Origin: a virus
Reading direction: 5' to 3' (one strand)
Length of the DNA: 11,042 bases
Virus genome (UHGV): UHGV-0292601
Shown: positions 852 through 10,896 of the stretch, in pieces
Position numbering within the stretch: the first letter of the stretch is position 1
How the letters are laid out: the number at the start of each line of letters is the position of its first letter
Notes under the pieces: generated by a model
What the model was told of the DNA's origin: nothing
Databases searched by the model: none
The model's input: the letters and a program-made list of their open reading frames with translations, nothing else
Position numbers and translations under genes: made by a program

Positions 852-3800
852 ATGGGTAAAGGCAGCAGTAAGGGGCATACCCCGCGCGAAGCGAAGGACA
901 ACCTGAAATCATCCCAGATGCTGAGCGTGATAGACGCCATCAGTGAAGGGCCGATTGAAGGTCCGGTGGACGGATTAAAAAGTGTGCTGCTGAACAGTAC
1001 GCCAGTGCTGGACAGTGAGGGGAATACCAATATCTCCGGCGTCACGGTGGTGTTCCGGGCAGGTGAGCAGGAGCAGACACCGCCGGAGGGATTTGAATCC
1101 TCCGGCTCCGAGACGGTGCTGGGTACGGAAGTGAAGTACGACACGCCGATTACCCGGACCATCACGTCTGCAAACATCGACCGTCTGCGCTTTACCTTCG
1201 GTGTGCAGGCACTGGTGGAAACCACCTCAAAGGGGGACCGGAATCCGTCGGAAGTCCGCCTGCTGGTTCAGATACAGCGTAACGGTGGCTGGGTGACGGA
1301 AAAAGACATCACCATTAAAGGCAAAACCACCTCGCAGTATCTGGCCTCGGTGGTGGTGGATAACCTGCCGCCGCGCCCGTTCAACATCCGGATGCGCAGG
1401 ATGACGCCGGACAGCACCACAGACCAGCTGCAGAACAAAACGCTCTGGTCGTCATACACCGAAATCATCGATGTGAAACAGTGCTACCCGAACACTGCAC
1501 TGGTCGGCGTGCAGGTGGACTCGGAGCAGTTCGGCAGCCAGCAGGTGAGCCGTAATTATCATCTTCGCGGGCGCATTCTGCAGGTGCCGTCGAACTATAA
1601 CCCGCAGACGCGGCAATACAGCGGTATCTGGGACGGAACGTTTAAGCCGGCATACAGCAACAACCCGGCCTGGTGTCTGTGGGATATGCTGACCCACCCG
1701 CGCTACGGCATGGGGAAACGTCTTGGTGCGGCGGATGTGGATAAATGGGCGCTGTATGTCATCGGCCAGTACTGCGACCAGTCAGTGCCGGACGGTTTTG
1801 GCGGCACGGAGCCGCGCATCACCTGTAATGCCTGGCTGACCACGCAGCGTAAGGCGTGGGATGTGCTCAGTGATTTCTGCTCGGCGATGCGCTGTATGCC
1901 GGTATGGAACGGGCAGACGCTGACGTTCGTGCAGGACCGACCATCAGATAAGGTGTGGATCTATAACCGCAGTAATGTGGTGATGTCGGATGATGGCGCG
2001 CCGTTCCGCTACAGCTTCAGCGCCCTGAAGGACCGCCATAATGCCGTTGAGGTGAACTGGATTGACCCGAACAACGGCTGGGAGACGGCGACAGAGCTTG
2101 TTGAAGATACGCAGGCCATTGCCCGTTACGGTCGTAATGTCACGAAGATGGATGCCTTTGGCTGTACCAGCCGGGGGCAGGCACACCGCGCCGGGCTGTG
2201 GCTGATTAAAACGGAACTGCTGGAGACGCAGACCGTGGACTTCAGCGTGGGCGCAGAAGGGCTTCGCCATGTACCGGGCGATGTCATTGAAATCTGCGAT
2301 GATGACTATGCCGGTATCAGCACCGGTGGTCGCGTGCTGGCGGTGAACAGCCAGACCCGGACGCTGACGCTCGACCGTGAAATCACGCTGCCATCCTCCG
2401 GTACCACGCTGATAAGCCTGGTTGACGGAAGTGGTAATCCGGTCAGCGTGGAGGTTCAGTCCGTCACCGACGGACTTAAGGTGAAAGTGAACCGGGTTCC
2501 TGACGGCGTTGCAGAATACAGTGTGTGGGGGCTGAAGTTGCCGACGTTGCGTCAGCGCCTGTTCCGCTGTGTGAGTATCCGTGAGAACGATGACGGCACG
2601 TATGCCATCACTGCCGTGCAGCATGTACCGGAAAAAGAAGCCATCGTGGATAACGGGGCGCACTTTGACGGCGACCAGAGCGGCACGGTGAATGGTGTCA
2701 CGCCGCCAGCGGTGCAGCACCTGACCGCCGAAGTCACCGCAGACAGCGGGGAATATCAGGTGCTGGCGCGCTGGGACACGCCGAAGGTGGTGAAGGGCGT
2801 GAGCTTCCTGCTCCGTCTGACCGTAACAGCGGATGACGGCAGTGAGCTGCTGGTCAGCACGGCCCGGACGACGGAAACCACATACCGCTTCACGCAACTG
2901 GCGCCAGGGAACTACAGGCTGACAGTCCGGGCGGTAAATGCGTGGGGGCAGCAGGGCGATCCGGCGTCGGTATCGTTCCGGATTGCCGCCCCGGCAGCGC
3001 CGTCGCGGATTGAGCTGACGCCGGGCTATTTTCAGATAACCGCCACGCCGCATCTTGCCGTTTATGACCCGACGGTACAGTTTGAGTTCTGGTTCTCGGA
3101 AAAGCGGATTACCGATATCAGGCAGGTTGAAACCACAGCCCGCTATCTTGGTACGGCGCTGTACTGGATAGCCGCCAGTATCAATATCAAACCGGGCCAT
3201 GATTATTACTTTTATATCCGCAGTGTGAACACCGTTGGCAAATCGGCATTCGTGGAGGCCGTCGGTCGGGCGAGCGATGATGCGGAAGGTTACCTGGATT
3301 TTTTCAAAGGCAAGATAACCGAATCCCATCTCGGTAAAGAGCTGCTGGAAAAAGTTGATCTGACGGAGGATAACGCCAGCAGACTGGATGAGTTTTCGAA
3401 AGAGTGGAAGGACGCTAACGATAAATGGAATGCCATGTGGGGCGTCAAAATTGAGCAGACCAAAGACGGCAAACATTATGTCGCGGGTATTGGCCTCAGC
3501 ATGGAGGACACGGAGGAAGGCAAGCTGAGCCAGTTTCTGGTTGCCGCTAACCGTATCGCGTTTATTGACCCGGCAAACGGGAATGAAACGCCGATGTTTG
3601 TGGCGCAGGGCAACCAGATATTCATGAACGACGTGTTCCTGAAGCGCCTGACAGCCCCCACCATTACCAGCGGTGGCAGTCCTCCGGTATTTTCCCTGAC
3701 ATCAGACGGAAAGCTGACCGCTAAAAATGCGGATATCAGTGGTAGTGTGAATGCGAACTCAGGAACGCTCAACAATGTCACGATTAACCAGAACTGTACG

Positions 3801-4265
3801 ATTAAGGGCATGCTGGAGGCGACTCAGGTCAGAGGTGACTTCGTTAAAGCTGTATCCAAATCATTTCCGAAACAGGCTGGTACGTGGGGTAACACGGAAA
3901 CGCCAAACGGGACGGTTACAGTCACCATCAGCGATGATCATAACTTTGACCGTCAAATCATTATTCCGCCCATTATCTTTAACGGAATAGCGTATAGCGA
4001 TCCGGGAAGTGGTAATAACCCGGGAGGTACAAGATACACGGGTTATGGTTTTGAAGTTCGCAAAAACGGTGTATTAATCGCATCCAGAGAAACTAAAGGG
4101 GCCATTCCCGGTAGCTACAGTGCGGTTATTGATATGCCGAGTGGCAGGGGAAGCGTCACTCTGGAGTTTAAGGTTTTCCATAAAGGCAATCAATGGGCAG
4201 GTAATATCACCGACTGTACGGTGATTGTGACCAAAAAAGCCGCTTCCGGCATCAGTATTCGTTGA
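852..4265 (+). CDS. J: Tail tip / host specificity protein J (central tail fiber)
   Basis: 1137-aa ORF with a GAGG Shine-Dalgarno at 845-848. The N-terminus [20 protein letters not shown]… and most of the length are near-identical to lambda gpJ as I recall it. The last ~150 codons diverge and become AT-rich. Confidence 0.95.
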
Positions 4266-4334: not shown

Positions 4335-4934
4335 ATGCGTAAACTTTATGCCGCCATTTTGTCCGCAGCCATTTGTCTGGCCGTATCCGGTGCGCCTGCA
4401 TGGGCATCTGAACATCAGTCCACGCTGAGCGCGGGGTATCTTCATGCCCGGACCAACGTTCCCGGCAGTGATGATCTGAACGGGATTAACGTGAAATACC
4501 GTTATGAGTTTACGGATACGCTGGGGCTGGTGACGTCATTCAGCTATGCAGGAGACAAGAATCGCCAGCTGACCCGTTACAGCGATACCCGCTGGCATGA
4601 AGATTCCGTTCGTAACCGCTGGTTCAGCGTAATGGCGGGGCCGTCTGTGCGCGTGAATGAATGGTTCAGCGCGTATGCGATGGCGGGTGTGGCTTACAGC
4701 CGTGTGTCGACTTTCTCCGGGGATTATCTCCGCGTAACTGACAACAAGGGGAAAACGCACGACGTGCTGACCGGAAGTGATGACGGTCGCCACAGCAACA
4801 CGTCTCTGGCGTGGGGAGCTGGCGTGCAGTTTAACCCGACCGAATCCGTGGCCATTGATATTGCTTATGAAGGCTCCGGCAGTGGCGACTGGCGCACTGA
4901 CGGTTTCATCGTGGGTGTCGGTTATAAGTTCTGA
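4335..4934 (+). CDS. lom: Outer membrane protein Lom (Ail/Lom family beta-barrel)
   Basis: 199-aa ORF with a GAGAGG Shine-Dalgarno upstream. It has an N-terminal signal peptide (MRKLYAAILSAAICLAVSGAPAWA) and a C-terminal aromatic residue (…GVGYKF) typical of outer membrane beta-barrels. The sequence is near-identical to lambda Lom as I recall it. Confidence 0.93.
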   Translation: MRKLYAAILSAAICLAVSGAPAWASEHQSTLSAGYLHARTNVPGSDDLNGINVKYRYEFTDTLGLVTSFSYAGDKNRQLTRYSDTRWHEDSVRNRWFSVMAGPSVRVNEWFSAYAMAGVAYSRVSTFSGDYLRVTDNKGKTHDVLTGSDDGRHSNTSLAWGAGVQFNPTESVAIDIAYEGSGSGDWRTDGFIVGVGYKF

Positions 4935-4988: not shown

Positions 4989-4998
4989 TGGGGTGAAT

Positions 4999-6759
4999 AT
5001 GGCAGTTAAGATTTCAGGTGTACTGAAAGACGGCACAGGAAAACCGGTACAGAACTGCACAATCCAGCTGAAAGCAAAACGTAACAGCACCACGGTGGTG
5101 GTGAACACGCTGGCCTCAGAAAATCCGGATGAAGCCGGGCGTTACAGCATGGACGTTGAGTACGGTCAGTACAGCGTTATTCTGTTGGTGGAGGGATTCC
5201 CGCCGTCACATGCCGGGACCATCACCGTGTATGAAGATTCCCGACCCGGTACGCTGAATGATTTTCTCGGTGCCATGACGGAGGATGATGCCCGTCCGGA
5301 GGCTCTGCGCCGTTTTGAACTGATGGTGGAAGAGGTGGCGCGTAACGCGTCCGCGGTGGCACAGAACACGGCAGCCGCGAAGAAGTCAGCCAGTGATGCC
5401 GGCACATCTGCCAGTGAGGCGGCAACCCATGCGACTGATGCTGCAGGCTCAGCGCGTGCAGCCAGCACGTCAGCCGGACAGGCCGCGACGTCGGCTCAGG
5501 AGGCGTCTTCCAGCGCAGGAACGGCATCAACAAAGGCCACTGAAGCATCAAAAAGTGCTGCCGCTGCAGAGTCCTCAAAAAGCGCGGCGGCCACCAGTGC
5601 CGGTGCCGCGAAAACGTCAGAAACGAATGCTGCAGCGTCACAACAATCAGCAGCCACTTCTGCATCCACCGCGACCACGAAAGCGTCAGAAGCTGCCTCC
5701 TCAGCCCGGGATGCGTCGGCTTCAAAAGAGGCGGCAAAATCATCAGAAACGAACGCATCATCAAGCGCCAGTAGTGCCGCTTCCTCGGCAACGGCGGCAG
5801 GAAATTCCGCGAAGGCGGCAAAGACGTCTGAGACAAACGCTAAGTCCTCTGAAACGGCAGCGGAACAGAGTGCCTCAGCTGCGGCAGGCTCAAAAACAGC
5901 GGCTGCATCATCTGCCAGTGCCGCGTCAACAAGTGCCGGGCAGGCCTCAGCCAGTGCCACCGCCGCCGGAAAATCGGCAGAAAGTGCTGCATCGTCCGCT
6001 TCAACAGCCACAACGAAGGCTGGCGAAGCCGCTGTACAGGCCAGCGCAGCAGCGAGGTCTGCTTCCGCAGCGAAGACATCCGAGACGAACGCGAAAGCGT
6101 CGGAAACCAGCGCAGAATCCTCAAAAACGGCTGCCGCATCGTCCGCCAGTTCGGCGGCGTCATCGGCATCATCTGCGTCTGCTTCAAAAGATGAGGCGAC
6201 CAGACAAGCGTCCGCAGCGAAGGGCAGCGCCACGACAGCATCCACGAAGGCGACAGAGGCAGCTGGCAGTGCGACGGCGGCAGCACAGAGCAAAAGTACG
6301 GCGGAATCCGCGGCAACGCGCGCCGAGACAGCGGCAAAACGGGCAGAGGATATTGCATCCGCCGTGGCGCTTGAGGATGCGAGCACGACGAAAAAGGGGA
6401 TAGTACAGCTCAGCAGTGCGACCAACAGCACTTCCGAGTCACAGGCGGCAACGCCAAAAGCCGTTAAGGCCGCGTATGACCTGGCTAACGGGAAATACAC
6501 CGCACAGGATGCAACGACAGCACAGAAAGGGATAATCCAGCTAAGCAGCGCGACCAACAGCACATCTGAAACGCTTGCCGCGACACCAAAGGCAGTAAAA
6601 ACAGCCTATGACAATGCTGAGAAACGTCTGCAGAAAGATCAGAACGGTGCGGATATCCCTGGCAAAGACACCTTTACGAAAAATATTGGTGCCTGCCGTG
6701 CCTTCGGTGGGTCAGTAAGCACAACAACAGGAAACTGGACGACTGCACAGTTTATCTAG
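4999..6759 (+). CDS. stf: Side tail fiber protein Stf, N-terminal and shaft part (ends at an in-frame TAG)
   Basis: MAVKISGVLKDGTGKPVQNCTIQLKA… matches the lambda Stf N-terminus. The ORF track starts at GTG 4993, but ATG 4999 gives the lambda-like start. A long Ala/Ser/Thr-rich shaft is followed by two copies of the conserved GI(V/I)QLSSATNSTSE…ATPKAVK tail-fiber repeat. The frame stops at TAG 6757-6759 and reopens immediately in the same frame. Confidence 0.85.
   Translation: MAVKISGVLKDGTGKPVQNCTIQLKAKRNSTTVVVNTLASENPDEAGRYSMDVEYGQYSVILLVEGFPPSHAGTITVYEDSRPGTLNDFLGAMTEDDARPEALRRFELMVEEVARNASAVAQNTAAAKKSASDAGTSASEAATHATDAAGSARAASTSAGQAATSAQEASSSAGTASTKATEASKSAAAAESSKSAAATSAGAAKTSETNAAASQQSAATSASTATTKASEAASSARDASASKEAAKSSETNASSSASSAASSATAAGNSAKAAKTSETNAKSSETAAEQSASAAAGSKTAAASSASAASTSAGQASASATAAGKSAESAASSASTATTKAGEAAVQASAAARSASAAKTSETNAKASETSAESSKTAAASSASSAASSASSASASKDEATRQASAAKGSATTASTKATEAAGSATAAAQSKSTAESAATRAETAAKRAEDIASAVALEDASTTKKGIVQLSSATNSTSESQAATPKAVKAAYDLANGKYTAQDATTAQKGIIQLSSATNSTSETLAATPKAVKTAYDNAEKRLQKDQNGADIPGKDTFTKNIGACRAFGGSVSTTTGNWTTAQFI
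5341..6390 (+). repeat. Ala/Ser/Thr-rich low-complexity coding repeats in the Stf shaft
   Basis: Degenerate reiteration of units such as AAKTSETNA, SSASSAASSA and TKATEAA at the protein level. The GC-rich GCN/TCN codon runs generate long spurious ORFs in other frames and on the - strand. Confidence 0.7.
6391..6612 (+). repeat. Tandem duplication of the tail-fiber repeat (two ~132-bp units)
   Basis: Unit 1 is 6391-6480 (KKGIVQLSSATNSTSESQAATPKAVKAAYD). Unit 2 is 6523-6612 (QKGIIQLSSATNSTSETLAATPKAVKTAYD). Confidence 0.8.
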
Positions 6760-6798
6760 TGGCTGGATTCTCAGGGAGCATTTAACCATCCCTACTGG

Positions 6799-8070
6799 AT
6801 GTGCAAGGGTTCCTGGTCTTATGGCAATAATAAAATCATTACTGATACTGACTGCGGTAATATTCATCTCGCCGGAGCTGTCATTGAAGTAATGGGGATA
6901 AAGTCAGCGATGACGATCCGCATTACCACACCGACCACCTCCACTGGTGGTGGAACAACTAACGCCCAGTTTACCTATATTAATCACGGAACAGATTATT
7001 CACCTGGCTGGCGAAGGGACTATAACTCCAGAAATAAGCCAACGGCATCAGAGATCGGGGCGTTACCGTCAGGTGGAACAGCAGTATCATCAGTTAATCT
7101 GGCTTCAAAAGGTCGGGTAACCGCGCTGACAGACAATACGCAGGGGGCAACAGGTCTTGAGTTATACGAGGTGTATAACAACGGATATCCAACAGCGTAT
7201 GGAAATATCATTCACCTGAAAGGGATGACAGCCGTTGGCGAAGGTGAGTTACTCATCGGCTGGAGTGGTACAAGCGGTGCTCATGCTCCGGCATTTATTC
7301 GTTCACGACGGGATACGACCGACGCAAACTGGTCGCCGTGGGCGCAGCTTTACACCTCGGCTCATCCTCCTGCAGAGTTTTATCCAGTCGGTGCACCAAT
7401 CCCGTGGCCATCAGATACCGTTCCGTCTGGTTATGCCCTGATGCACGGGCAGACTTTTGACAAATCTGCCTACCCGAAACTTGCAGCCGCTTATCCGTCA
7501 GGCGTGATCCCTGATATGCGTGGCTGGACGATTAAGGGCAAACCTGCCAGTGGTCGTGCCGTATTGTCTCAGGAACAGGACGGCATTAAATCGCACACCC
7601 ACAGCGCCAGCGCATCCAGTACGGATTTGGGGACGAAAACCACATCGTCGTTTGATTACGGCACTAAATCCACGAATAACACCGGGGCTCATACGCACAG
7701 TCTGAGCGGCTCTACAAGCTCGGCCGGAGCACACTCGCACGTTGATGGTCGCAGGTTTAATACAAGCACTTTTAAAGACACCTATCAGTATGGTTCTACA
7801 GCTGTCGGAAGTAACTCATACCAGGTACAAGGGGCGGTTGGTCTGGGCATTGGCACGATGGCGAATACGAACTCTGCTGGCGCGCATACCCACTCACTGT
7901 CCGGCACTGCTGCAAGCGCAGGTGCACACGCACATACTGTCGGTATTGGTGCTCATACGCACTCCGTTGCGATTGGTTCACATGGACACACCATCACCGT
8001 TAACGCTGCTGGTAACGCGGAAAACACCGTCAAAAACATCGCATTTAACTATATTGTGAGGCTTGCATAA
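6799..8070 (+). CDS. stf: Side tail fiber protein Stf, C-terminal part (same frame as 4999..6759; sense codons run from 6760)
   Basis: In frame with the upstream stf ORF ((6799-4993) is divisible by 3). The 13 codons from 6760 to 6798 contain no stop. The C-terminal ~230 aa (…[19 protein letters not shown]…GAHTHSLSG…[22 protein letters not shown]) match the lambda Stf C-terminus, including the His-X-His repeats. The stop TAA 8068-8070 overlaps the tfa ATG (TAATG). Confidence 0.8.
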
Positions 8071-8654
8071 TGACATTCAGAATGAGTGAACAAGCACGGA
8101 CCATAAAAATTTATAATCTGCTGGCCGGAACTAATGAATTTATTGGTGAAGGTGATGCATATATTCCGCCTCATACAGGTCTGCCAGCAAACAGTACCGA
8201 TATTGCACCACCAGATATTCCTGCTGGCTTTGTGGCTGTTTTCAACAGTGATGAGGCATCGTGGCATCTCGTTGAAGACCATCGGGGTAAAACGGTTTAT
8301 GACGTGGCTTCCGGCGACGCGTTATTTATTTCTGAACTCGGTCCGTTACCGGAAAATGTTACCTGGTTATCGCCGGAAGGGGAGTTTCAGAAGTGGAACG
8401 GCACAGCCTGGGTGAAGGATACGGAAGCAGAAAAACTGTTCCGGATCCGGGAGGCGGAAGAAACAAAAAACAGCCTGATGCAGGTAGCCAGTGAGCATAT
8501 TGCGCCACTTCAGGATGCTGTAGATCTGGAAATCGCAACGGAGGAAGAAACCTCATTGCTGGAAGCCTGGAAAAAGTATCGGGTGTTGCTGAACCGTGTT
8601 GATACATCAACTGCACCTGATATTGAGTGGCCTACGAACCCTGTCAGGGAGTAA
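8070..8654 (+). CDS. tfa: Tail fiber assembly protein Tfa
   Basis: 194-aa [57 protein letters not shown]… near-identical to lambda Tfa as I recall it. Its start overlaps the stf stop, consistent with translational coupling. Confidence 0.9.
8489..8610 (+). repeat. Direct repeat, copy 1 (tfa 3' region)
   Basis: About 120 bp matching 9538..9659 at an estimated 85% identity (for example TATTGCGCCACTTCAGGATGCTGTAGATCTGGAAATCGCAACGGAGGAAGAAA versus the same with one mismatch at 9547-9599). Confidence 0.85.
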
Positions 8655-8708: not shown

Positions 8709-9377
8709 CTATTTTTTCCCTGAAGCGGAAAACATTACTACAGTACCTTGAACCTTGGTTTTAACATTCTCGAAATGCTCTGAGAGTATATGTGTTAAGC
8801 CTTCTTCGGAATCTTTTGTGTTTGAAAAGATGCCTTTCTGATTGTAAATGCGCATCAGTTTTTGACCGAAGCTATTGTGCACAACTCCATCGCCAAGAAT
8901 TGTGGCTCCGTATAGAGTTCCATCGTCAGTTAAGGCCTGCGCCGCATTGCGTATTACACAGCTTTTTGTAGATATATTTCCAGGCAGGCAGTGAAGAAGG
9001 TAAAACATGGAAATGGAATCAAATTGACCATGTAACGCCGCGGGATAAGGTTCAAAAACATCATGGCTAATTTTATGTTTAATTTTTGATTCCCCAGCCC
9101 TTGTAGATGCCGCGTTCAGGCTAGCTTCGTTCAAATCCATTAAAGATATCAGACTACTCTCAGGTACGTGAGTAAGGTAAAACCCAGTTCCAACACCAAT
9201 ATCCAGATGGTTGTTACCTAAATGTTCCAGAAAGTGTGGAAGAAGGTGTTCCTTTGTAGGACATCCCCATGCAAGCCGATTTGATACTCCCAAAACCCAC
9301 CAGTCATAAAGCTTTAGGGTAAGTGGTGTGTAAATTTTAGCCCCATCATCTGTGTTTTTTTTCATTAATTTCACCAT
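8709..9377 (-). CDS. Class I (Rossmann-fold) SAM-dependent methyltransferase, likely small-molecule or protein methyltransferase; phage cargo (moron) gene
   Basis: 222-aa ORF with the motif order typical of this fold: motif I LDIGVGTGFY, an acidic residue ending beta-2 (LMDLNE), motif II FDSISMFYLLHCLP, and motif III LTDDGTLYGATIL. I see no DNA-methyltransferase DPPY or PC motifs. Its position between tfa and a tfa remnant recalls the putative methyltransferase ybcY between tfaD and tfaX in the E. coli K-12 DLP12 prophage; that equivalence is from memory and unverified. A GGTGA Shine-Dalgarno better serves the second ATG (codon 5, base 9365), so the true start may be there. Confidence 0.75.
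   Translation of the reverse strand: MVKLMKKNTDDGAKIYTPLTLKLYDWWVLGVSNRLAWGCPTKEHLLPHFLEHLGNNHLDIGVGTGFYLTHVPESSLISLMDLNEASLNAASTRAGESKIKHKISHDVFEPYPAALHGQFDSISMFYLLHCLPGNISTKSCVIRNAAQALTDDGTLYGATILGDGVVHNSFGQKLMRIYNQKGIFSNTKDSEEGLTHILSEHFENVKTKVQGTVVMFSASGKK

Positions 9378-9870: not shown

Positions 9871-10896
<1,026 letters not shown>

Follow-up and report, generated by a model that had tools for sequence, protein, structure and literature searches.

Organization of the stf locus

The window, that is the whole 11,042-nt stretch of virus genome UHGV-0292601 that was analysed, carries at positions 4999–8070 of the plus strand the lambda-type side tail fibre gene (stf) of an E. coli lambdoid prophage, which runs for 1023 codons in one frame throughout with a single in-frame stop inside. 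In close relatives stf is annotated as one 3072-nt CDS, and the gene order given by Pfam, I-J-lom-stf-tfa, is identical to that of lambda. Pfam placed PF08400, two matches to PF03406, PF07484 and PF03335 on stf, and the gene for the tail fibre assembly chaperone, tfa, is found at 8070–8654 on the plus strand (PF02413, E = 3.5e-45). The N-terminal collar domain (aa 1–94; 4999–5280, plus strand), the part of Stf that joins the fibre to the tail, matched residues 1–94 of the ‘Tail fiber protein’ in PDB 9e7m with E = 5e-52; the tail-attachment family PF08400 matched aa 1–134 (E = 6e-72), and gpStfN of Ur-lambda comprises residues 1–91 (PMC12617516). The gene and its fibre shaft are an ordinary, previously known feature.

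The distal half of stf (6760–8070, plus strand) encodes a collar domain and GAHTHS-type fibre repeats, with PF07484 and PF03335 matched on the ORF at 6799–8070, and is joined to the N-terminal half in one frame in relatives. In the present copy an in-frame amber codon (TAG) lies at codon 587 (6757–6759, plus strand), where three close relatives have GAG, and the residue after ‘TAQFI’ in other stf alleles is E or S. No intact full-length frame with a receptor-binding tip is found in this copy. The amber codon truncates Stf ahead of its distal receptor-binding half and inactivates the gene, leaving a pseudogene or the source of a tip-less product; positions 6760–8070 are no longer translated as part of the fibre here unless the amber is suppressed. 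Without suppression this prophage is thus unable to produce an entire side fibre. An exact look-up of the 586-aa truncated product found no record.

In lambda PaPa (orf-401 plus orf-314) stf is likewise inactivated after the fibre repeats, but there a frameshift just after the single fibre repeat ends the orf-401 frame at codon 401. Window positions 4999–5906 are collinear with lambda orf-401 at 87% nucleotide identity over 908 nt, a span that takes in the N-domain together with heptads 1–28 of the shaft, and a further block is 79% identical over 217 nt; global alignment showed two collinear blocks with one 315-nt gap between them. The heptad register of lambda Stf begins at residue 109, as it does here, and in both the shaft is followed by the Phage_fiber_2 module and the tfa chaperone, whereas the lambda shaft has 35 heptads compared with 50 here, one fibre repeat compared with two, and a different distal half. 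The 315-bp block without a lambda counterpart (5907–6221, plus strand; 15 heptads) is the only difference in shaft length from lambda. It was considered as a recent internal duplication and rejected, with a best in-register identity of 51% and a best 63-nt window of 43/63.

E. coli Stf alleles, including those of phages mEp460_ev081 and PhiR26_1 and RefSeq entries named ‘prophage tail fiber N-terminal domain-containing protein’, share 95–99% DNA identity with the window. The E. coli prophage and phage alleles have the same 50-heptad shaft with one to four fibre-repeat copies, and differ from the present copy in that codon 587 is intact. Of 5426 complete E. coli genomes, 653 carry the same 1023-codon gene, with presence scored where the stf-tfa query (window 4993–8654) was covered to 80% or more; stf places in complete E. 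coli genomes number ∼26,000 altogether.

Periodicity of the shaft protein and of its DNA

The sequence-only reading had described the stretch as an Stf fibre shaft of about 350 codons built from degenerate short units, and both the homology with lambda stf and the periodicity of the protein agree with this. The shaft (5323–6372, plus strand; aa 109–458) is exactly 350 codons long and, when laid out in sevens, consists of 50 uninterrupted heptads with the consensus S-A-x-x-A-x-x and an unbroken register. Heptad position 5 (d) is Ala in 47 and Val in 3 of the 50 heptads, position 2 (a) is Ala in 35, and position 1 (g) is Ser in 37, so that the a and d positions carry the small or hydrophobic residues of a coiled coil. 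In the Ala/Ser/Thr-rich stretch at aa 115–458 (codons 117–460 if numbered from the upstream GTG at 4993), Ala makes up 38%, Ser 24% and Thr 12% of residues, 74% together. The Ala indicator had a power of 10.3 at period 3.5 (maximum in 2000 shuffles, 2.0) and of 4.3 at period 7 (maximum in the shuffles, 1.6), and a search of the shaft for hendecad (11-residue) periodicity, including period 3.67, gave no signal.

An AlphaFold2 monomer model, which was used for secondary structure only, predicted helix over aa 98–248, 259–382 and 398–476. Its mean pLDDT was 66, with shaft block means of ∼67–89 outside two low-confidence breaks (aa 249–258 and 383–397), and the model bends the helix back on itself. 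We attribute this fold-back of the rod to the modelling of a single chain; the same was reported for AlphaFold3 by the authors of the Ur-lambda study (PMC12617516). Their cryo-EM/ET showed residues 102–393 of Ur-lambda Stf as a proximal trimeric coiled coil, and the lambda Stf homolog was seen as a rigid rod (PMC12617516). By analogy, aa 109–458 presumably form a proximal alpha-helical coiled-coil rod, and its trimeric state is carried over from Ur-lambda. A coiled coil rises by ∼0.15 nm per residue, and at this value 50 heptads would extend for roughly 52 nm as a rigid rod.

The DNA of the shaft presents a different picture from that suggested by the sequence-only reading, in which this coding DNA was prone to slippage and recombination. 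When the shaft DNA was compared with itself at offsets of whole 21-nt units, identity was 0.439 (codon shuffles, 0.371 ± 0.004, maximum 0.388). The 21-nt units are 43% identical on average, and exact repeats reach 12 nt at most, as expected from codon shuffles. Run at its lowest threshold on the shaft, Tandem Repeats Finder returned nothing beyond one 9-bp × 2.1 array of Ala-Ser-Ser units (6155–6173, plus strand), which is the sole DNA-level tandem repeat there. The high-identity head-to-tail DNA units of a contingency locus are absent from the shaft, and the length polymorphism among close copies that is also expected of such a locus is seen for the 132-bp fibre repeat only and not for the shaft. 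The shaft DNA looks reiterated because the protein is periodic; its codons have been scrambled by synonymous and conservative changes, and hence no repeat reaches the length that slippage or RecA-type recombination would need. With no long DNA repeat, the shaft is expected to be genetically stable within a lineage.

Length variation in the shaft and in the 132-bp repeats

Among related prophage loci sharing this N-terminal anchor and shaft spacing, the shaft was exactly 1050 nt in 77 of 77 (70 distinct sequences, 3.5–10.7% diverged from this one), and a single locus among all those fetched with this N-domain had 4 additional shaft residues. At the protein level, shaft length was unchanged in 81 of the 120 nearest clusters, and the largest cluster (4246 members) is at the standard length of 1023 aa. 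The other 39 clusters carry rare small in-frame indels of 1, 2, 3, 6 or 12 residues, not multiples of seven, at ∼20 sites, some of which may be assembly errors. One of these, a three-residue ‘ASS’ deletion at aa 387, is present in 12 of the 120 clusters. At the ends of 13 deletions in relatives, some have 4–7 nt of microhomology, within the top 2–7% of the null distribution, which is suggestive only because the placement of deletions from protein alignments is ambiguous.

Across the family, shaft length ranges from ∼14 to 50 heptads (∼3.5-fold) and the heptad register is constant along the shafts. Of 29 family representatives, 23 differed from the window by 7n aa in the distance from the anchor to the first fibre repeat and the other 6 by 7n−1, with length classes of 50, 43, 35, 34, 21, 19 and 18 heptads; these classes are phylogenetically non-independent, and thus 23/29 overstates the number of independent events. 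Moreover, since 39 of the 120 close clusters have indels that are not multiples of seven, the heptad rule is a tendency and not a law. Comparison of the present shaft with itself shifted by 84 aa gave 30 matches in 42 residues, a value reached by 1 of 200 register-preserving shuffles, and relatives P0154 and P0156 contain a 63-aa (9-heptad) tandem block with 39–40 of 42 residues matching; these similarities would be traces of block duplication. Literature searches for heptad quantisation of Stf shafts found no paper.

After the shaft, the two ∼132-bp copies of the fibre repeat noted from the sequence were recovered as two adjacent matches to the 42-residue profile PF03406 (E = 8e-39). Copy 1 (aa 460–503) lies at 6376–6507 and copy 2 (aa 504–547) at 6508–6639, both on the plus strand and in the coordinates of the repeat HMM; they correspond to a direct repeat (D3) with arms at 6374–6480 and 6506–6612, 132 nt apart and 72% identical. 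The longest word common to both copies is 14 nt, and with such low identity this allele is a poor recombination substrate. Alleles sharing this shaft carry one copy (46 alleles), two (28), three (6) or four (1), as counted by motif and checked by eye; a two-sequence HMM of the repeat was also tried for counting and was dropped because it overlooked one-copy alleles. The inner copies of three- and four-copy alleles are 90–98% identical in nucleotide sequence, one-copy alleles are exact hybrids of copies 1 and 2, and relative P0001 has an exact 44-aa insertion. Among related prophages, only the 132-bp repeats and not the shaft vary in copy number.

The contractile-tailed phage Mu shares this module. 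One Phage_fiber_2 unit and the following ‘NGADIP’ segment are common to the window and to Mu S and S' (PDB 5yvq, 8ju3), with copy 2 matching residues 100–172 of Mu tail fibre S, and a ‘GKDTFTKNIGACRA...WTTAQFI’ segment is also shared with Mu S'. The solved Mu S chains (∼490–500 residues) match from the Phage_fiber_2 unit onward only, and no match to the Ala-rich heptad shaft or to the lambda-type N-terminal collar domain of the window was found in them.

Interpretation and competing readings

Very probably, then, the stretch encodes a coiled-coil shaft in which the repetition belongs to the protein and not to unstable DNA, with rare in-register changes of shaft length and with turnover of the 132-bp unit. 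Periodicity, homology, length statistics and copy-number variation are direct observations, and from them we infer how length may change. Over long times shaft length would shift via rare in-register events, for which block duplications or deletions and exchange with other stf alleles are candidates, and survivors would mostly have whole numbers of heptads because the distal domains are kept in register. The copy number of the 132-bp unit may turn over by unequal crossing-over between copies. The length variation expected from the sequence alone is therefore found at the scale of the family (∼14–50 heptads) and in the 132-bp repeat (1–4 copies), but not in the shaft of close relatives. The sequence-only reading had named, as evidence against it, an identical repeat architecture in all homologs and no periodicity beyond amino-acid composition; since the architecture is not identical across homologs, that outcome was not obtained.

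If the shaft were instead hypervariable, contingency-type repeat DNA whose frequent slippage or recombination alters fibre length and tunes its reach, the ∼3.5-fold range of family lengths, the indel sites with their recurrent 9-bp ‘ASS’ deletion at the sole micro-tandem, the microhomology flanking several deletions and the recent 9-heptad tandem duplication in relatives would all be in keeping. However, DNA repeats are at chance level and the Tandem Repeats Finder result is negative, the length of 1050 nt is constant in the 77 loci despite up to 10.7% divergence, the largest cluster keeps the standard length, and no recent duplication accounts for the 315 bp by which the shaft differs from lambda. 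For this allele the hypervariable reading is already largely refuted, and we regard it as improbable. More doubtful still, and very improbable in our estimate, is an intrinsically disordered linker of low-complexity Ala/Ser/Thr sequence, either mucin-like or serving as a flexible tether, whose units arise from composition alone. The high Ala, Ser and Thr content and the moderate model confidence would fit such a linker, whereas a strict seven-residue register kept throughout the 350 residues, one position being Ala or Val in every one of the 50 heptads, periodicity well above composition-preserving shuffles, homolog lengths quantised in sevens, the helical model and the rigid rod of the lambda homolog argue against it.

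The long open frames that overlap the shaft were also considered as a real overlapping gene, comparable to orf206b, a minus-strand ORF that the lambda reference record annotates in this region. The frames in question are an ORF of 336 codons on the plus strand (5393–6403), with no stop in the shaft, and one of 355 codons on the minus strand (5496–6563), in a nearly stop-free frame; further antisense ORFs of the same kind lie at 5222–5836 and 5840–6358 (minus strand). Their openness is explained by the T-poor codons of stf: the shaft is 12% T, with 2% T at second codon positions, and three of its five other frames have 0–1 stops per 350 codons. Substitutions fall mainly at third positions of stf codons (49 compared with 18 and 17 at the other positions against lambda, and 35 compared with 9 and 5 against relative L002). 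A Pfam search of the alternative-frame ORFs gave no match, and their products, rich in Arg, Pro and Gln or in Ala and Asp, mirror the stf codons. That 5393–6403 or 5496–6563 is a gene is thus extremely improbable, and the earlier view of these ORFs as spurious stands.

Within the coiled-coil reading, as regards any functional role of length, we infer only tentatively, and with low probability, that the shaft is a selected, heptad-quantised ‘ruler’. Its classes of ∼14, 18–21, 34–35, 43 and 50 heptads (rods of roughly 20–52 nm) may be matched to the thickness of the host's O-antigen or capsule layer or to how far the central fibre J extends, and the 44-residue modules may be a second, faster-evolving adjuster of length or hinge. 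The data cover the discrete classes and the copy-number variation, and the link to host surface and adsorption is hypothetical. YadA-type trimeric autotransporter stalks are rod-like coiled coils that set the distance from anchor to head and vary in length by whole repeats; they belong to an unrelated sequence family with another anchor, and the likeness to the Stf shaft is one of analogy only.

These results settle a recurring annotation question, in that a repetitive stf gene with big ORFs in other frames reflects side effects of coding for a coiled coil, and the appearance of stf points neither to an unstable locus nor to overlapping genes. Since shaft lengths in nature (14 to 50 heptads) vary mostly in steps of whole heptads, in-register indels are the natural way to alter fibre length, and for engineers of lambda-type fibres the 44-residue module is a unit that occurs naturally in one to four copies.

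The stf locus and the identity of the shaft

The ORFs and Pfam matches identify the window as a lambdoid prophage tail end, with genes for tail assembly protein I (144–791), J (852–4265), Lom (4335–4934), the side tail fibre protein Stf (stf, 4999–8070) and the tail fibre assembly protein (tfa, 8070–8654). Downstream of tfa lie a class I SAM methyltransferase gene on the minus strand (8709–9377) and then an IS5 transposase gene (9916–10896). The closest relative (L001, 9717–15662) has the methyltransferase, then a tfa fragment, an alpha/beta hydrolase, ompT, envY and ybcH, which suggests that the prophage is sited near ompT/envY/ybcH and that IS5 was inserted at the prophage end in the window genome. 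In K-12 this neighbourhood is the DLP12-type site. Hundreds of complete E. coli genomes carry the stf–tfa segment at 95–99% identity; at least 80% of it is covered in 653 of 5426, and the median is 4 matching stf places per genome. The segment is also found in isolated phages of the lambdoid group, among them mEp460_ev081 and PhiR26_1, where it is labelled ‘side tail fiber protein’.

In the annotation of close relatives stf is a single 3072-nt CDS. In the window an in-frame TAG (amber) at 6757–6759, codon 587, causes it to be listed as two same-frame ORFs (4993–6759 and 6799–8070); this codon is GAG in three close relatives and Glu or Ser in other alleles. An exact look-up found no record of the truncated product elsewhere. 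The distal half of the side fibre is lost in both lambda PaPa and the window prophage, by a frameshift in the former and a nonsense mutation in the latter.

Residues 1–94 of Stf match a solved ‘Tail fiber protein’ chain (PDB 9e7m, E = 5e-52). From its start codon to codon 302, lambda stf (orf-401) aligns gaplessly with the window, the DNA being 87% identical; beyond one 315-nt gap the alignment resumes at 79% and reaches into the first fibre repeat. The lambda heptads begin at residue 109, as in the window, and number 35 ahead of the same ‘KGIVQLSS’ repeat. Cryo-EM and cryo-ET of Ur-lambda showed that the side fibre is a trimer of Stf, with a collar domain (1–91), linker (92–101), proximal coiled-coil domain (102–393), hinge (394–422) and then a distal domain (PMC12617516). 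By the lambda alignment and this domain map, the Ala/Ser/Thr-rich stretch of Stf is the homolog of the Ur-lambda proximal coiled coil. An AlphaFold2 single-sequence monomer of residues 95–560 was helical at 98–248, 259–382 and 398–476, with pLDDT mostly ∼70–89 (block means 67–89 outside two breaks), and doubled back on itself at the two breaks. Because the Ur-lambda authors report the same fold-back with AlphaFold3 (PMC12617516), we regard it as an artefact.

Heptad periodicity and stability of the shaft

The sequence-only reading had described 5341–6612 (Stf residues 115–538) as about 350 codons of degenerate short units followed by two tandem ∼132-bp repeats, and this description was accurate. 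Residues 109–458 (window 5323–6372) comprise exactly 350 codons, or 50 consecutive heptads with zero register shifts and the consensus S-A-x-x-A-x-x. Position 5 is Ala in 47 heptads and Val in 3, position 2 is Ala in 35 (the remainder mostly Lys or Glu), and position 1 is Ser in 37. This periodicity exceeds a composition effect: the period-3.5 and period-7 components of the Ala-indicator spectrum had powers of 10.3 and 4.3, compared with maxima of 2.0 and 1.6 over 2000 shuffles, and the spectrum had no peak at 11 or 3.67 residues. Shaft DNA self-identity peaked at lags of 21, 42, 63, 84 and 105 nt, averaging 0.439 at multiples of 21 nt versus 0.371 ± 0.004 in codon shuffles, and the short direct repeats found were mostly spaced by multiples of 21 nt. 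The two tandem copies (6374–6480 and 6506–6612) show 72% identity with a 132-nt spacing, and both match PF03406 (Phage_fiber_2). At a rise per residue of ∼0.15 nm, the calculated shaft length is about 52 nm for the window (350 residues) and about 36 nm for lambda (245).

The proposal that this shaft is prone to slippage and recombination was not borne out; the shaft is a stable periodic structure at the protein level, not slippage-prone DNA. Its 21-nt units share a mean identity of 43% (46% for adjacent units), and its longest exact repeated word, 12 nt, equals the median of codon-shuffled controls. When viral and genome contigs were scanned with the N-domain alone, the 77 prophage loci with the window's shaft spacing (70 distinct shaft sequences) were 89.3–96.5% identical to the window, all exactly 1050 nt and gaplessly aligned; one further locus was longer by 4 residues. 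The same length was found in 81 of the 120 nearest protein clusters, a set biased towards rare singletons, and the remainder carried small in-frame indels of 1–14 residues at ∼20 different sites. The largest cluster, of 4246 members, has the standard length of 1023 residues. Tandem Repeats Finder detected nothing in the shaft except a 9-bp × 2.1 array of Ala-Ser-Ser units at 6155–6173. The sole recurrent indel, an ‘ASS’ deletion at residue 387 (12 of 120 close clusters), coincides with this array, which is the only shaft site where slippage is plausible.

Length variation in the fibre repeats and across the family

Length variation had also been predicted for the shaft, as a possible means of tuning fibre reach. 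The prediction of variable length is partly supported: shaft lengths differ over evolutionary time and the number of fibre repeats changes, but the shaft itself is stable, and the variable part of stf is the fibre repeats. Of 81 prophage alleles sharing the window's 50-heptad shaft, 46 carry one copy of the 44-residue unit, 28 carry two, 6 carry three and 1 carries four. One-copy alleles join the copy 1 start exactly to the copy 2 end, inner copies in three- and four-copy alleles show 90–98% DNA identity, and an insertion of exactly 44 residues distinguishes the related protein P0001 from the window Stf. This pattern is the signature of unequal crossing-over. The window copies are of diverged ‘first’ and ‘last’ types; they show 72% identity and their longest word in common is 14 nt, which makes the window allele a poor substrate for such exchange. 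Prophage alleles part ways directly after ‘ADIP(G/D)K’, so that this motif looks like a shared mosaic joint. Window 6508–6756 corresponds to Stf residues 504–586. Residues 100–172 of S, the tail fibre protein of Mu (PDB 5yvq and 8ju3), match the second fibre repeat plus ‘NGADIP’, and Mu S' (8ju3, residues 177–227) matches the ‘GKDTFTKNIGACRA...WTTAQFI’ segment just ahead of the amber codon.

To cover the wider family, 1.8 billion representative proteins were searched with the N-domain only, and in each match length was taken as the distance between a conserved N-domain motif and the first fibre repeat. The offset from the window was an exact multiple of 7 residues in 23 of 29 informative representatives, a fraction that overstates the number of events since these are not independent, and 7n−1 in the other 6. 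The length classes were 50, 43, 35, 34, 21, 19 and 18 heptads, along with three that fell short by one residue, at least six distinct classes being exact heptad multiples, and the heptad register was constant along family shafts. Shaft length in the family thus varies in heptad quanta.

The 315-bp block at 5907–6221 (15 heptads) lacks a counterpart in lambda Stf; a recent duplication was ruled out as its origin, the best in-register identity to other shaft parts being 51%. An old 12-heptad duplication has left a faint imprint on the window shaft: at lag 84, 30 of 42 residues match, a value reached by 1 of 200 register-preserving shuffles. Unlike the window, with this ancient trace only, the relatives P0154 and P0156 carry a fresh 63-residue (9-heptad) tandem duplication at shaft residues ∼182–310 (39–40 of 42 residues identical), and this shows that recent block duplication in register can lengthen shafts. 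The duplicated block is rich in ‘AAKTSETNAK’ units, and one bearer is a 774-residue, lambda-length protein. Microhomology of 4–7 nt beside some deletions in relatives is suggestive only as a cue to the deletion mechanism. Rare in-register block duplication or deletion would change shaft length, as would exchange among the several stf alleles carried by most E. coli genomes, and selection would then retain whole heptads.

Alternative-frame ORFs and significance

The long alternative-frame ORFs, which had been called spurious and ascribed to the reiterated DNA, are indeed spurious and have no Pfam matches, but their cause is codon composition (T-poor GCN, TCN and ACN), not repetition as such. 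T makes up 12% of shaft bases and 2% of second codon positions, and three of the five non-stf frames have 0, 1 and 1 stops per 350 codons; ORFs 5393–6403 (+), 5496–6563 (−), 5222–5836 (−) and 5840–6358 (−) arise because these frames are almost stop-free. Substitutions fall mostly at third positions of the stf frame, with 49 versus 18 and 17 elsewhere against lambda and 35 versus 9 and 5 against the relative L002. At the same place the lambda reference record (NC_001416) annotates orf206b, a ‘hypothetical protein’ at 20147–20767 on the minus strand, opposite the sequence for the Stf coiled coil. This ORF seems to lie in the same stop-free frame as the window's spurious ORFs (e.g. 5496–6563, minus).

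The genome contig scan also returned lambda-type stf in its 401-codon form (L087–L094, L100 and others) from assemblies labelled Kitasatospora, Pseudomonas, Shewanella, Oceanobacillus, Leeuwenhoekiella, Desulfosporosinus and others. Several of these contigs are ∼48.4–48.5 kb and some are at ∼1× coverage; lambda control DNA contamination is the most likely source.

The shaft is one of the known parts of a much-studied fibre, and the allele is common in E. coli. Two descriptive results, the quantisation of shaft length in heptads and the range of 1–4 copies of the 44-residue module, could inform fibre engineering.
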